Of a stretch of DNA of 64,000 bases, positions 19,421 through 53,608 are shown one piece after another. The DNA is from Thermodesulfobacteriota bacterium (lineage in GTDB: Bacteria; Desulfobacterota_D; UBA1144; Nemesobacterales; JAJCZQ01), in the NCBI GenBank assembly GCA_965215275.1, contig OZ244044.1:477548-541547 (forward strand), in the 5' to 3' direction. The position numbers and the translations under genes were made by a program. The number at the start of each line of letters is the position of its first letter. Position 1 is the first letter of the stretch. The notes beneath the pieces are model-generated. The model ran no database searches and had not been told where the DNA came from. It saw only the letters and a program-made list of their open reading frames with translations.

Positions 19421-19744
19421 TATGACAATGCAGATTTTTATACCCCCCCCCCCCATCAATCCCGTAGCAAACGCGACACTCCTAAATGGGAGAACAGAAC
19501 TTCATTTTACAGGAATAATCTAGAGTTTTTACGAGCAACAAATAGTAATAGTGTTTTTCTAGTAGTAACAGACCCACCTTTTAATAAAAACAAGGTTTTT
19601 TCCGCTATACCTGGCAGTTCAGTTTCTGAAATAAAGTTTCAGCATAGATTGTCTTGGGATGACTCTGTTTATGAAAAACGGGGAGATGAAATCACTGATA
19701 ACCTTACTATACGTCAAGCTATGTATGTAGTTTCCACTATTTAA
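19421..19744 (+). pseudogene. N-terminal stub of an N6A/N4C DNA methyltransferase (DPPF motif IV only) carrying an in-frame C12 tract
   Basis: My translation gives MTMQIFITPPPHQSRSKRDTPKWENRTSFYRNNLEFLRATNSNSVFLVVTDPPFNKNKVF...KFQHRLSWDDSVYEKRGDEI...* (107 aa, open by my reading although not listed in the ORF track). The pattern N.LEFLR...S..L.VTDPPF matches the N-terminus of DNA methylase N-4/N-6 enzymes. No AdoMet motif I follows. Confidence 0.55.
19443..19454 (+). repeat. Homopolymer C12
   Basis: Counted directly (tacccccccc ccccat); it lies in codons 8-12 of the methyltransferase stub. Confidence 0.95.
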
Positions 19745-36141: not shown

Positions 36142-39100
36142 CTACAGATTTATATAAGACCTTCTCTTCCTTCTGATCAATACTGATACAGGTATCAGCA
36201 TCAGACATGCTATTACTCCGAACAGTCCAGAAACAACGTCGTTCTGATCGGAAATTGCACATCCTCCTCCACCACCAGCTTCAGTATCTGGTGTTGGTCC
36301 CGGTCTCGGCGGAGCAGGACGATTCACTACCCTGATCGTGAAACTCAACTCAGCCATATCCCCATCTTCGTCTGTTACCGTATACGTGTAAGTATCAGAC
36401 GATGATACACTGGTGGGTGTTCCGCTTATCACTCGGGTAGATGCGTTAAAATCCAGTCCAGTTGGTAATGCTGGTGTTAAACTGTATCTTAATGTTCCAT
36501 TCCCTCCTGCTGCCTCAGGCAGTGTTACTGTTACTGCTGTACCCACCACATAATTCCTATTAGTAACTGTTGCACTGCCAAAGGTTGGCACGTCAGATCC
36601 TACCGTGATCCCGAACGTCAACTCAGCCATATCCCCGTCTTCGTCCGTTACAGTATATGTATAAACTGTCCTGCTCGCTGCAGTAACCGGTGTCCCGCTT
36701 ATTACTCGGGTGTTATTGTCAAAATTCAATCCAGTCGGTAATCCAGGGGTTATACTGTACCTTAATACTCCATTCCCTCCTGCTGCCTCAGGCAGTGTTT
36801 CTGTTACTGCTGTACCGGTTATATACTCCTGATCATCTATCGTATCACTGAAGCCTGGTTCTTCGTTTGCAGCCACCGTGATCCCGAACGTCAGATCAGT
36901 CGTATCCCCGTCTTCGTCCGTTACTGTATATGTATAAACTGTCCTGCTCGCTGCAGTAGTCGGTGTCCCGCTTATCTCTCGGGCAGATGCATTAAAATCC
37001 AATCCGGCAGGTAATCTAGGGGTTATACTGTAAGTTAATGGAGCATTCCCTCCCGTTGCTGCAGGCAGCGTTACCGGAAGGTTTGTCATTTTTCCTGCTA
37101 CATACTCCTGATCAGCTATCGTATCGCTGAAGCCTGGTTCTACGTCTGCTGATATCGTGATACCGAACGTCAAATCAGCTGTATCCCCATCATCATCCGT
37201 TACTGTATATGTATAAGCCGTCCTGCTCGCTGCAGTAGCCGGTGTCCCGCTTATTACTCGAGTGTTAATGTCAAAATCCAATCCAGTCGGTAATGCCGGG
37301 GTTATACTGTAAGTTAATGGAGCATTCCCTCCCGCTGCTACAGGCAGTGTTACCGGAAGGTTTGTTCCCGTCCCTGCTATGTACTCCTGATCAGCTATCG
37401 TATCGCTGAAGCTTGGTTCTTCGTTTGCAGCTACCGTGATCCCGAACGTCAGATCATCCGTATCCCCATCTTCATCCGTTACAGTATATGTATAAGCCGT
37501 CCTGCTCGCTGCAGTAGTCGGAGTTCCACTTATCACTCGGGTAGCAGGGGTAAAATCCAATCCGGCAGGTAGTCCAGGGGTTATACTGTAAGTTAATGGA
37601 GCATTCCCTCCCGTTGCTGCAGGCAATGTTACCGGAAGGTTTGTTCCCGTCCCTGCTATGTACTCCTGATCAGCTATCGTATCGCTGAAGCCTGGTTCTT
37701 CATTTGCAGCTACCGTGATCCCGAACGTCAGATCATCCGTATCCCCATCCTCGTCCGTTACTGTATATGTATAAGCCGTCCTGCTCGCTGCAGCAGCCGG
37801 TGTTCCGCTTATTACTCGAGTGTTACTGTCAAAATCCAATCCAGTCGGTAAAGCCGGGGTTATACTGTAAGTTAATGGAGCATTCCCTCCCGTTGCTGCA
37901 GGCAATGTTACCGGAAGGTTTATCGTTTTCCCTGCTACATACTCCTGATCACCTATCGTATCGCTGAAGCCTGGTTCTACGTCTGCTGATATCGTGATCC
38001 CGAACGTCAGATCATCCGTATCCCCATCCTCGTCCGTTACTGTATATGTATAAACTGTCCTGCTCGCTGCAGCAGCCGGTGTTCCGCTTATTACTCGAGT
38101 GTTACTGTCAAAATCCAATCCAGTTGGTAATGCAGGGGTTATACTGTAAGTTAATGGAGCATTCCCTCCCGCTGCCTCAGGCAGTGTTACCGGAAGGTTC
38201 GTTGCTGTCCCTGCTACATACTCCTGATCATCTATCGTATCACTGAAGCCTGGTTCTTCGTTTGCAGCTACCGTGATACCGAACGTCAGATCAGTCGTAT
38301 CTCCATCTATGTCTTCTACCGTATATGTATAGGTATTCTTACTTGCTGCAGCAGTCGGTGTCCCGCTTATTACTCGAGTGTTACTGTCAAAATCCAATCC
38401 AGTTGGTAAAGCAGGGGTTATACTGTAAGTTAATGGAGCATTCCCTCCCGCTGCTACAGGCAGTGTTACCGGAAGGTTAGTTGCTGTCCCTGCTACGTAC
38501 TCCTGATCAGCTATCGTATCACTGAAGCCTGGTTCTACGTCTGCAGCTATTGTAATACCAAACGTCAAATCAGTCGTATCTCCATCTATGTCTTCTACCG
38601 TATATGTATAGGTATTCTTACTCGCTGCAGTAGTTGGAGTTCCGCTTATCGCTCGGGTAGCAGGGGTAAAATCCAATCCAGTTGGTAAAGCGGGAGTTAT
38701 ACTGTAAGTTAATGGAGCATTCCCTCCTGCTGCCTCAGGCAGTGTTACCGGAAGGTTTGTTGCTGTCCCTGCTACGTACTCCTGATCAGCTATCGTATCA
38801 CTGAAGCCTGGTTCTACGTCAGCTGATATCGTGATACCGAACGTCAGATCATCCGTATCACCATCTTCGTCCGTTACTGTATATGTATAAGCCGTTCTGC
38901 TCGCTGCAGCAGCCGGTGTCCCGCTTATTACTCGAGTGTTACTGTCAAAATCCAATCCAGTCGGTAATGCCGGGGTTATACTGTAAGTTAATGGAGCATT
39001 CCCTCCCGCTGCCTCAGGCAGTGTTACCGGAAGGTTTGTTGCCGTACCTGCTATGTACTCCTGATCATCTATCGTATCACTGAAACTTGGCACTTCGTTT

Positions 39101-50686: not shown

Positions 50687-53608
50687 ATGTTCCTAAAAAC
50701 TGACTATCTGCTGTGTTTTTTATTTGCCTTCATGTGTTTTATGTCCATTGAGGCATATGGTCAGACCAGTGTTGATCATTGCGACTCCAGTGAAACGCCT
50801 GAAGCTACCTTGACAGTGGACGCAGCGGCACACGATGGAAGCTTTGAAAATACCGGTGCTGATCCGCATTATTTTCAGATAGACGCAGCATCCGATATTA
50901 ACGTAGAAATAACGACAACTGGTATTGCTGACGGTTTTTTACAACTGTGTGACGGCAGCGATGATCTGATAGCAAGCAGTACTAACAGAATTCCAGCTCG
51001 CCTCAGACCTGGAACGTACTATATCGTTGTGGGAAGCAGTGGTGCTGACAGTTACCGGCTTTCAGTTGCAACAGATACTGATTATAACGACCTGTTATCT
51101 GATTGTGGGAACGTTACCACCGATTTTAATGATCCATTATACGGCTGTCAGTGGCATCTGAAAAATACGGGTCAGTGGATTTTCAACGGGCAGAGAATAA
51201 CCGCCGGCGAAGATATAAACACAGAGGGAGTGTGGAATGATGGAATATCCGGCAGTAGAGTTAACGTGGCAGTGGTAGACAGTGGTATGGACCCCTTGCA
51301 TGAGGACCTGGTCGCCAATGTAAATCCCAGCCTGAACCATGATTACTCTGGAAACGGTAATGTATTTGATCCTTCAAGTGCTCATGGTACACGTGTAGCG
51401 GGCGTTATAGCAGCAGTGGGTGATAATGGGATCGGTATAAGGGGGATAGCACCTCAGGCAAGTATCTATAATTATAACCTGGTAACGGAAGGTAATGGTA
51501 CTTCCGCTAACATAGCAGATGCTATGACCCGTAACCATATTACAACTGCGGTATCCAACAACAGTTGGGGACCGGATGGTATACTCGTTCTTTTCTCCGC
51601 TGGTAGAACCTGGGAACTGGCAGTGGAAACAGGTATCAGGGAAGGGTTTGGTGGTAAAGGAATTTTTTATGTCTATTCAGTTGGAAATGGAGGTGATGAA
51701 TTCGACCAGGCTAATTTTGCGGAGTTTTCTAATTATTATGCCGTGACTCCCGTCTGTTCAGTAGACGCTTTTGGCAGAAAAAGTCTTTTTTCGGAAGAAG
51801 GAGTAAATCTGTGGATATGTGCTCCAGGTTCGCTTATTACAACGACAGATAATAAAGACCGCTATAACTTTGGGGTTAGCGGAACGTCATATTCCGCTCC
51901 GGTCGTTTCAGGGGTCGCAGCACTGATGCGTGAGGTAAACGGTGACCTTAGCTGGAGGGACCTGAAACTTATACTGGCAGCTTCAGCCCGCAGGAACGAC
52001 CCGACCGATCCGGGCTGGAAGACGGGAGCACTTAAATACGGTTCTGATACAGACAGTTATAGTTACAATCCAAAGTACGGTTTTGGCGTAGTGGATGCCG
52101 AGGCAGCAGTAGAACTTGCCGAGAACTGGACTAACGTTCCAAGGATGAGAACTCAGACTGCTTCCTCGGGTAATATTAATACAGCGATCCCCGATCACAC
52201 AGGTGGAGCAGACGGAGAAATTCTTTCCAGCCTGAACGTATCCGATACTGATATTTTTACAGAATTCGTTGAGGTCAGTATCAATTTCTCTCACGCTTTT
52301 TTTCCAGATCTGGAAATACAGATAACGTCCCCTGGTGGCACTGTGTCGCAACTTACTGAGGAATATGTAGAAGGAGCGATATCGTACATATCTGACGGTT
52401 TACTCCCCAGGAACGACTTTGATTACAGCTCCTACACTCATCGTTTTGGTTCAGCCAAACACCTCGGAGAGGACCCTGCTGGAGAATGGATTTTGAAGAT
52501 CGATGATACTGAAGAGGTAGATACCGGGACTTTACACTCATGGAGCATTAAAGTTTATGGGCATAAGACCGTAGAAGGTACGGCACCAAGCTTTGACGGT
52601 AAGACGATAACTAATAAGGAATATGTAACGGGCAGAGCAATAACAGCAGAGAAGCTGCCTGAAGCAGCGGGAGGGGATGGAACATTAAGATACAGTATAA
52701 CGCCAGCATTACCGACTGGATTGAGTTTTGACAGTAACACCCGAGTAATAAGCGGGACACCGACTACTGCAGCGAGCAGGACGGCTTATACATATACTGT
52801 AACGGACGAAGACGGGGATACGGCTGATTTGACGTTCGGGATCACAGTAGCTGAAGACGAAAAACCAACTTTCAGTGATACGATAGATGATCAGAAGTAT
52901 ATAGCAGGGACGGCAACGAACCTTCCGGTAACGCTGCCTGAGGCAGCAGGAGGGAACGCTCCATTAACTTACAGTATAGATCCTGCATTACCGACTGGAT
53001 TGAGTTTTAACGCATCCACCCCACCCCACGAAATAAGCGGAACACCCACTACTGCGATACCTGAGACCCCTTATACATGGAGTGTTACAGATGTAGATGG
53101 AGATACAGCTGAGTTGACGTTCAGAATAACTATAGAAGAAGACAGCACTCCGGACCTTGACGGTACGACAGTTTCTACTCAAATGGAGTACACATACACA
53201 GCAGGGAGACCATTAACGCTGCCTGCAGCAACGGGAGGAAATCCACCAGTTACTTACAGTATAACTCCTGATCTGCCAGCTGGATTGATATTTAACGAAG
53301 TTACCCGGGTAATAAGTGGCACACCCAGGAGCGCATCGTCTGGAACTTACACTTATACGGTAACGGACAGGAATGGAGATATGGATAAGGTGACTTTCAT
53401 ACTCAGTGTAGAGGTTTCTTCTTCTCCAGGACCAACAACAACACGAAGACCAGGAACGTCAGGTACTGATGCAGGAGGTGGAGGAGGATGTGCTGTCTCC
53501 CATCAGAGAGGCGTTGTTCCTGATATGCTCGGAGCAGTAGCATGTCTGATACTTATACCTGTATCAGTACTAGTTAAAAGGAATAGAAGGTCTCAGATAA
53601 AGACTTAG
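50687..53608 (+). CDS. Secreted kexin-like S8 serine protease with PPC-like N-domain, P-domain, 3 Ig-like repeats and GGGGC-TM-KRNRRS anchor
   Basis: 973 aa; VAVVDSGMD / SAHGTRVAG / SGTSYSAPVVSG; P-domain ...HSWSIKVYGH; C-terminus GGGGGCAVSHQRGVVPDMLGAVACLILIPVSVLVKRNRRSQIKT. Confidence 0.92.
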   Translation: MFLKTDYLLCFLFAFMCFMSIEAYGQTSVDHCDSSETPEATLTVDAAAHDGSFENTGADPHYFQIDAASDINVEITTTGIADGFLQLCDGSDDLIASSTNRIPARLRPGTYYIVVGSSGADSYRLSVATDTDYNDLLSDCGNVTTDFNDPLYGCQWHLKNTGQWIFNGQRITAGEDINTEGVWNDGISGSRVNVAVVDSGMDPLHEDLVANVNPSLNHDYSGNGNVFDPSSAHGTRVAGVIAAVGDNGIGIRGIAPQASIYNYNLVTEGNGTSANIADAMTRNHITTAVSNNSWGPDGILVLFSAGRTWELAVETGIREGFGGKGIFYVYSVGNGGDEFDQANFAEFSNYYAVTPVCSVDAFGRKSLFSEEGVNLWICAPGSLITTTDNKDRYNFGVSGTSYSAPVVSGVAALMREVNGDLSWRDLKLILAASARRNDPTDPGWKTGALKYGSDTDSYSYNPKYGFGVVDAEAAVELAENWTNVPRMRTQTASSGNINTAIPDHTGGADGEILSSLNVSDTDIFTEFVEVSINFSHAFFPDLEIQITSPGGTVSQLTEEYVEGAISYISDGLLPRNDFDYSSYTHRFGSAKHLGEDPAGEWILKIDDTEEVDTGTLHSWSIKVYGHKTVEGTAPSFDGKTITNKEYVTGRAITAEKLPEAAGGDGTLRYSITPALPTGLSFDSNTRVISGTPTTAASRTAYTYTVTDEDGDTADLTFGITVAEDEKPTFSDTIDDQKYIAGTATNLPVTLPEAAGGNAPLTYSIDPALPTGLSFNASTPPHEISGTPTTAIPETPYTWSVTDVDGDTAELTFRITIEEDSTPDLDGTTVSTQMEYTYTAGRPLTLPAATGGNPPVTYSITPDLPAGLIFNEVTRVISGTPRSASSGTYTYTVTDRNGDMDKVTFILSVEVSSSPGPTTTRRPGTSGTDAGGGGGCAVSHQRGVVPDMLGAVACLILIPVSVLVKRNRRSQIKT
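52583..53416 (+). repeat. Three diverged about 93-aa Ig-like (He_PIG/CADG-type) coding repeats
   Basis: Three occurrences of LP.A.GG...(L/V).YSI.P.LP.GL.F......ISGTP......YT..VTD..GD. Confidence 0.85.

Follow-up and report, generated by a model that had tools for sequence, protein, structure and literature searches.

A candidate Cys-type C-terminal sorting signal dedicated to stalked subtilases, an expanded protein family of an uncultured Thermodesulfobacteriota bacterium

The 64,000-nucleotide stretch of DNA analysed here (the window; positions 477,548 to 541,547 of contig OZ244044.1, assembly GCA_965215275.1, from an uncultured diderm bacterium of the Thermodesulfobacteriota) encodes three S8/P-domain proteases, each of which ends in the same short tail, where a run of glycines closed by a cysteine is followed by a polar stretch, a hydrophobic helix and a basic cluster. 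We propose, at a probability of roughly 0.6, that this tail is an uncatalogued, family-dedicated variant of the Cys-type tripartite C-terminal sorting signals and that it is cut by a myxosortase-like CPBP protease. It would then be classed with MYXO-CTERM, Synerg-CTERM, and JDVT-CTERM, and it would be dedicated to a hugely expanded family of stalked subtilases. The proposal draws on the architecture of the tail and the conservation of its residues, on its copy number, on its absence from the catalogue of sorting signals, and on a CPBP gene with intact catalytic motifs that lies on the same contig outside the window and whose orthologue adjoins a tail-bearing protease gene in a sister metagenome-assembled genome (MAG), GCA_964348445.1.

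Anatomy of the tail and conservation of its residues

An earlier note on this DNA had described a tripartite C-terminal module of 44 residues shared by the three proteases, and both translation and a hidden Markov model (HMM) of the tail bear this out. Homologous 44-residue C-termini are encoded at all three intervals, and a search of the six-frame translation of the window with the tail HMM returned exactly three copies, at 93-107 bits, the next best scoring <6 bits. Each copy opens with GGGGG-C, which leads through 11 residues of polar or mixed character into a hydrophobic stretch of 17 residues (LFGVIACLMLIPVSVLI and variants, with Kyte-Doolittle peaks of 2.2-2.4); RRKRR or KRNRR comes next, and five further residues precede the stop codon. 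The elements of the three copies are placed as follows.

36142..36276, minus strand: tail copy 1, GGGGGCAISDQNDVVSGLFGVIACLMLIPVSVLIRRKRRSYINL and stop, the end of the giant protease (translation; tail HMM 103.5 bits)
36259..36261, minus strand: codon for the invariant Cys in copy 1, numbered 0 in the signature G-G-G-C-x-x-S-x-Q (62/62 tails; coordinates checked)
36175..36225, minus strand: hydrophobic helix of copy 1 (LFGVIACLMLIPVSVLI), with a near-invariant core L-x-L-I-P-V-S (Kyte-Doolittle peak 2.44; column statistics)
36160..36174, minus strand: basic cluster RRKRR of copy 1, on the predicted cytoplasmic side (column statistics; coordinates checked)
42281..42415, minus strand: tail copy 2, GGGGGCSVSDQNDVVSGLFGVMTCLMLIPVSVVIRRKRRSYIKM and stop (translation; tail HMM 107.3 bits)
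42398..42400, minus strand: invariant Cys codon of copy 2 (column statistics; coordinates checked)
42314..42364, minus strand: hydrophobic helix of copy 2 (LFGVMTCLMLIPVSVVI; Kyte-Doolittle, column statistics)
42299..42313, minus strand: basic cluster RRKRR of copy 2 (column statistics; coordinates checked)
53474..53608, plus strand: tail copy 3, GGGGGCAVSHQRGVVPDMLGAVACLILIPVSVLVKRNRRSQIKT and stop (translation; tail HMM 93.1 bits)
53489..53491, plus strand: invariant Cys codon of copy 3 (column statistics; coordinates checked)
53525..53575, plus strand: hydrophobic helix of copy 3 (MLGAVACLILIPVSVLV; Kyte-Doolittle, column statistics)
53576..53590, plus strand: basic cluster KRNRR of copy 3 (column statistics; coordinates checked)

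Column statistics were taken over 62 non-redundant tails with the Cys as position 0, one stray sequence being behind several of the single exceptions. The Cys itself, Ser+3, and Gln+5 are each present in 62/62 tails, and three Gly residues precede the Cys in 61-62 of the 62. Asp+11 follows in 55/62, and within the helix Leu+19 and Leu+21 are each found in 61/62, Ile+22, Pro+23, and Val+24 each in 59/62, and Ser+25 in 60/62, while the basic cluster is made up of R+29 (58/62), R+30 (59/62), K+31 (54/62), and R+33 (56/62). The second Cys, inside the helix at +18, is Cys in 41 tails and Ser in 19 of the 62, and hence the earlier claim of two conserved cysteines stands for the one that closes the Gly run and has to be given up for the other. 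There are no insertions or deletions between the Cys and the C-terminus in any of the 62 tails, the distance from the Cys to the end being 39 residues in 45/62 and at most 48. Some 20 positions of the tail, including the helix motif L-x-L-I-P-V-S and the cytoplasmic side, are invariant or nearly so while the catalytic region falls to 55-60% identity. Among the pairs that have diverged furthest, identity is 60-81% in the tail compared with 57-67% in the catalytic region, and over 496 pairs of paralogues from the same genome the mean identity is 67% in the tail and 69% in the catalytic domain, with a Spearman rho of 0.64. This co-variation indicates that the tail is not homogenised across the family.

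Carrier genes and their spread

The three carriers of the window have a hydrophobic N-terminal leader ending AYG/Q (by inspection), a PPC-like domain, an S8 protease domain and a P-domain of the proprotein-convertase type, and they differ in the number of He_PIG immunoglobulin (Ig)-like repeats, which is 0, 3 or 11. Their positions are given below, together with the signal peptides.

36142..41390, minus strand: carrier gene 1, with signal peptide, PPC-like domain, S8 domain, P-domain, 11 He_PIG repeats and tail (open reading frames (ORFs), translations, Pfam)
42281..44371, minus strand: carrier gene 2 (696 aa), with signal peptide, PPC-like domain, S8 domain, P-domain, short Pro/Thr linker and tail (translation, Pfam)
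50687..53608, plus strand: carrier gene 3 (973 aa), with signal peptide, PPC-like domain, S8 domain, P-domain, 3 He_PIG repeats and tail (translation, Pfam)
44297..44371, minus strand: Sec-type signal peptide of carrier 2, MQVPSFYLLCFVFASMCFMSIGAYG/Q (by inspection, no predictor)
50687-50761, plus strand, and 41295-41390, minus strand: signal peptides nearly identical to that of carrier 2 (by inspection)

The tail had been thought private to these three proteases, which does not hold beyond the window. The window proteins belong to a contig of 1,990,023 bp, on which a search with the S8+P region found at least 40 paralogues; of the 40 listed (383-1218 aa), 36 have the tail, and the four without it are truncated ORFs. 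Together with a 1545-aa ORF of the window, this gives at least 37 tail-bearing ORFs on the contig. The same family is also present in the sister MAG and in a few ENA/JGI metagenome contigs. When 1.84 billion representative proteins were searched with a profile built from eight tails, only 15 clusters came out below E 1e-10. All 15, as well as all carriers of the genome itself, are fragments or versions of a single modular family (PPC-like, S8, P-domain, He_PIG). Two pattern scans with tail alignments over 185,579 species-representative genomes did not find the tail. From the profile result and the empty scans it follows that the tail is restricted to one lineage and one protein family, yet it is not private to three genes. 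Within the family the tail is retained on derivatives that have lost the protease too, as P0020 (261 aa, L005:8759-9544) has no more than a PPC-like domain, a single He_PIG repeat and the tail. The out-group homologues, which are ~50% identical in S8+P, have no transmembrane (TM) tail, and many of them (among P0076-P0146) end in ...DYFxGxIxxxxAxxVIxLYFSS. This ending is part of a module of ~45 residues, opening ...D-x-D-x-D-G-x-I-x-x-x-E..., that is EF-hand/dockerin-like and for which Pfam gives a sub-threshold EF-hand_6 match only.

A C13 homopolymer at 40785-40797, which reads G13 on the strand of the gene, breaks the frame of carrier gene 1, and many of the paralogue gene calls begin within the S8 domain, which suggests that frame breaks are widespread in the family. 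The Gly run of the tail is encoded by mixed GGT and GGA codons and is therefore no slippery homopolymer. Further C homopolymers in the window are a C11 run at 41394-41404, directly upstream of the start codon of carrier 1, and an intergenic C12 run at 19443-19454, and protease genes of the sister MAG have similar C9/C10 runs at or just 5' of their starts (L007:9954-9962 and L007:19371-19380). An IS1595-type transposase is encoded at the end of the window (63007-63948), and in the sister MAG a Cas12f1/TnpB-like fragment (L001:9264-9677) lies between two protease paralogues.

Catalogued sorting signals and the candidate processing enzyme

Tripartite tails of the Cys type that are cut by Rce1-like proteases were first recognised in 2023, when Haft set out eight attributes of tripartite sorting signals and described Synerg-, JDVT-, and MYXO-CTERM; each of the four described Cys-type tails is paired with a CPBP (bioRxiv 10.1101/2023.06.07.544157). 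MYXO-CTERM/MrtX is the only one of these to have been put to an experimental test, in 2025, when cleavage of MYXO-CTERM by MrtX and its dependence on the Cys were shown (PMC11980579). Seven of the eight attributes are present in the tail described here, these being the position at the extreme C-terminus, multiple copies per genome, a signature motif, the helix, the basic cluster, a signal peptide and out-group homologues that lack the tail. We scanned the three window tails and 40 diverse tails (46 tail scans in all) with 18,950 NCBIfam models. No CTERM model reached its cutoff, in agreement with the earlier impression that no known signature fits, and there was hence no clean match to an existing model with its cognate sortase. 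The weak matches of the 40 tails were to sorting-tail models only, except for three single weak matches, and mostly to Cys-type models, so that the comparison with Cys-type signals made from the three tails was well chosen. Specifically, Synerg-CTERM (TIGR04564) gave a weak match in 35/40 tails (best 14.5 bits against a cutoff of 22.5, best E 0.0054, below threshold), JDVT-CTERM (NF033191) in 20/40 (best 13.8 bits against a cutoff of 27), Heimdall-CTERM in 9, LPXTG in 5, and MYXO-CTERM (TIGR03901) in 2/40 (E 0.013). GlyGly-CTERM (TIGR03501) and PEP-CTERM (TIGR02595) had no match at E<=10 in the 46 tail scans, in which the HMMER filters may hide very weak ones.

The window itself encodes no polytopic membrane protease and no sorting enzyme, as had been noted before, its membrane ORFs being a Na/H exchanger, DUF6580, an RND pump, EamA and a further ORF with two TM segments that has no assignment. 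The enzyme was sought in six tail-gene neighbourhoods of the sister MAG, five of which contained no candidate. The remaining one, on contig CAYGCP010000010.1, has a 211-aa PF02517 (Rce1-like/CPBP) gene (L007:9043-9678) that lies 322 bp upstream of the tail-bearing protease P0030 on the same strand, with a second tail gene 7 kb beyond. An exact-sequence look-up places a 214-aa protein, P0151, that is 96% identical (202/211 residues) on the 1,990,023-bp contig of the window, and the genome of the window therefore encodes a myxosortase-like CPBP. With at least 37 carriers and this protein on one contig, the tail is neither limited to three proteins nor left without a possible partner in the genome. 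The recorded PF02517 match and the three catalytic motifs, EExxxR (EEFFFR at 126), FxxxH (FAIAH at 152), and HxxxN (HFMAN at 201), all of which are present, place the candidate in the CPBP/Rce1-like family. Its eight best NCBIfam matches take in the complete set of seven Mrt models, five of which hold the top five places, and MrtP, Mrt_core, MrtC, MrtS, and MrtX score it 25-40 bits above a single generic enterobacterial CPBP (Providencia) taken as the control:

MrtP: candidate 67-69 bits (cutoff 250), control 29
Mrt_core (NF040914): candidate 64-65 bits (64.4-65.4; cutoff 100), control 39
MrtC: candidate 58 bits, control 30
MrtS: candidate 57-59 bits (cutoff 130), control 30
MrtX: candidate 44-45 bits, control 20
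MrtJ: candidate 33.5-34.8 bits (cutoff 75), control 33.9

Among PDB sequences phmmer found no match to the CPBP, and an AlphaFold2 model made without an alignment had a mean predicted local distance difference test (pLDDT) score of 50 and was unusable. The gene order at L007:5526-13270 is a long S41 C-terminal-processing peptidase (MXAN_5808 family, TIGR03900, 746 bits, above cutoff), a Gly-zipper lipoprotein, the CPBP, the tail-bearing protease and a CDP-alcohol transferase (L007:12578-13270), the last of which follows the CPBP-adjacent client gene and is phosphatidylinositol-phosphate-synthase-like (148 bits, below cutoff). The 211-aa ORF between the tandem proteases of the window (41412-42047, minus strand) was considered as a sorting factor and dropped, as it has one N-terminal TM segment and no protease motifs. 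This ORF has no Pfam match, and in the sister MAG a 207-aa ORF without a recorded Pfam family (L001:12313-12936) lies just downstream of a protease gene.

Based on the model scores and on differences in motif and spacing, we reject membership of the tail in Synerg-CTERM, JDVT-CTERM, MYXO-CTERM, GlyGly-CTERM, and PEP-CTERM, and its likenesses to and differences from the three Cys-type systems are as follows. Synerg-CTERM, which is paired with MrtS (NF040589) in the Synergistota, is the commonest weak model match and has a Gly/Ser-rich cluster that ends abruptly in a single invariant Cys, a Leu-rich helix with a near-invariant Pro (here Pro in 59/62) and a basic end, and its enzyme model scores the candidate at 57-59 bits compared with 30 for the generic CPBP. 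It differs in having no spacer, whereas in our tails the Cys and the helix lie 11 residues apart, S+3 and Q+5 among them being invariant and D+11 nearly so. Our tail is also the longer, at 44 aa against 27, its carriers are of one protein family, and the candidate enzyme scores well under the MrtS cutoff of 130. JDVT-CTERM, paired with MrtJ (NF033192) in the Pseudomonadota, likewise has a Gly-rich motif with one invariant Cys, an enzyme gene that can adjoin the client and a near-invariant acidic residue at the entry to the helix, although this is D-P at +9 in JDVT and [S/P]-D at +10/+11 here. The order and spacing of its motif are different, there is ~1 JDVT tail per genome against at least 37 here, and on MrtJ the candidate, at 33.5-34.8 bits, does no better than the generic control at 33.9. 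MYXO-CTERM, which is served by MrtX, MrtC or MrtP (core model NF040914) in the Myxococcota and Bradymonadales, shares the Cys-type tripartite tail, the many clients per genome, a single housekeeping CPBP that is not necessarily near its clients and a second Cys that is optional, and the best matches of the candidate enzyme are to MrtP (67-69 bits) and Mrt_core (64-65 bits). In contrast to the tails described here, with P+23 and D+11, MYXO helices are without Pro or charged residues; MYXO clients are unrelated proteins while ours are one family; and Mrt_core gives ~65 bits against a cutoff of 100. A possible cousin, which we do not use as evidence and which was the one distant resemblance that a scan of metagenomes brought up, is the end of a subtype-B tannase (GGGGGCSVSYGTGSISYLLFLIPVAIAIRKRIR; L003:441-2000, metagenome contig LDZR01002123.1), a shorter look-alike on an unrelated enzyme that scores 16.6 bits on the tail HMM and lies below all NCBIfam CTERM cutoffs; a search with this tannase tail found nothing.

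Alternative readings, proposed mechanism, and significance

Several points weigh against the proposal that the tail is a signal cut by the CPBP. The three window tails and the 40 diverse tails all stay below the cutoffs of the NCBIfam CTERM models, and the candidate enzyme (P0148/P0151) below those of the Mrt models; its scores are set against a single generic control. The adjacency of CPBP and protease is a single case with a chance expectation of ~5% (~45 protease genes among ~1,900 genes), a second assembly with the same adjacency is probably the same population, and the DNA separating the CPBP gene from P0030 contains a hairpin resembling a terminator and a site resembling a promoter. The polar stretch of 11 residues between Cys and helix is atypical, as Haft's signals of the intramembrane-protease type are without such a spacer. 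Finally, attribute 7 of Haft's list, many pairs of carriers without other similarity, is absent here because the tail is found on one modular family only, and the tail could simply be the conserved anchor of its own protein family.

The fullest form of this last explanation is a permanent, unprocessed C-terminal anchor that holds the protease in the inner membrane facing the periplasm and owes its conserved look to descent from one ancestral gene. It is consistent with carriers that all belong to one modular family and with a tail identity that merely follows the identity of the catalytic domain, and processing has not been observed, nor does the window hold a cognate enzyme. For such an anchor, however, hydrophobicity would suffice, yet ~20 residues are fixed (the Gly run with the invariant Cys, S+3, Q+5, D+11, and L-I-P-V-S) and so is the length, and the tail is conserved as strongly as the catalytic core. 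Moreover, the genome encodes a myxosortase-like CPBP whose orthologue adjoins a client gene in the sister MAG, and the long stalks, of up to 11-15 Ig-like repeats, would be hard to house in the periplasm and would fit the cell surface better than a periplasmic tether. We regard the permanent anchor as unlikely, while giving it real weight.

A signal of the GlyGly-CTERM type, at which a rhombosortase would cleave behind the Gly run as in Vibrio VesB and in which the Cys would be incidental, would account for the Gly run immediately before the tail and for the tripartite layout. GlyGly-CTERM is indeed similar in that a Gly run, a helix and a basic end are carried by secreted serine proteases of diderm bacteria, of which VesB is a known example among its cargo, and these are retained at the surface after export through the type II secretion system. 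GlyGly-CTERM has, however, neither an invariant Cys nor a polar spacer, whereas the Cys of the present tails, the mark of the Cys-type class, is invariant in 62/62, and between their Gly run and the helix there is a polar stretch. The GlyGly-CTERM model is unmatched even at E<=10, the candidate enzyme is a CPBP and not a rhomboid, and no rhomboid gene was found in the ~150 kb of sister-MAG sequence sampled, which is a small fraction of that genome. It is therefore very improbable that a rhombosortase is involved.

Concerted evolution, in which gene conversion among more than 40 paralogues would give an apparent conservation with no specific partner protein, has in its favour the tail DNA of copies 1 and 2, which is 91% identical compared with 79% in their S8+P region, and can otherwise be set aside as scarcely credible, since the tail diverges with the catalytic domain over the 496 pairs (rho 0.64), distinct subtypes persist (for example ...ASLMLIPVSVVIRRKIR and ...ACLILIPVSVVIRRKRR), synonymous differences build up (synonymous divergence, dS, 0.18-0.55, with the ratio of non-synonymous to synonymous divergence, dN/dS, at 0.2-0.86 and hence <1), and the same invariant positions are found in other assemblies. 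The near-identity of tail DNA that the earlier note reported is indeed true of copies 1 and 2 and is not true of copy 3, which at 78-79% is no better than the S8+P region among the window genes (79-83%).

We therefore return to the Cys-type signal and its CPBP and put forward a hypothetical mechanism, which is modelled on the MYXO-CTERM/MrtX work for the modification of the Cys, the cleavage, the export route and the anchoring at the surface. The precursor would be exported via Sec by its N-terminal signal peptide, and the C-terminal helix with RRKRR would retain it at the inner membrane, the protease and its Ig-like stalk being in the periplasm. The invariant Cys that ends the Gly run would then be modified, probably with a lipid. 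We propose that P0151, the myxosortase-like CPBP/Rce1-type glutamic intramembrane protease, reads the helix and cuts distal to the Cys, after which the mature protease would cross the outer membrane and be attached to the surface through its modified C-terminus. It is a long shot, and we offer it as such, that at least 40 surface subtilases, forming a phase-variable set, have one small myxosortase-like CPBP as their common handle by way of a new signal class, possibly with an inositol-lipid anchor. What would set such a class apart is a spacer, polar and invariant (C-x-x-S-x-Q...[S/P]-D), from the lipidation Cys to the Pro-containing helix. The hint of an inositol-lipid C-terminal anchor comes from the phosphatidylinositol-phosphate-synthase-like gene that follows the CPBP-adjacent client, and if such an anchor were true it would be a bacterial counterpart of the glycosylphosphatidylinositol (GPI)-type anchor.

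The class to which we assign the tail is already known, and it is the tail signature and the enzyme subfamily that lie outside all curated models. Annotation models miss such tails, and as a result their carriers are labelled as plain S8 peptidases. The tail and its candidate enzyme would represent a variant with a different signature, beyond the lineages described so far, and offer a compact candidate pair of enzyme and substrate, a CPBP of 214 aa and a tail of 44 aa. For the organism, it would mean that, in a genome of 2 Mb, a single type of tail marks at least 37 paralogous, probably phase-variable proteases that are predicted to be at the cell surface.

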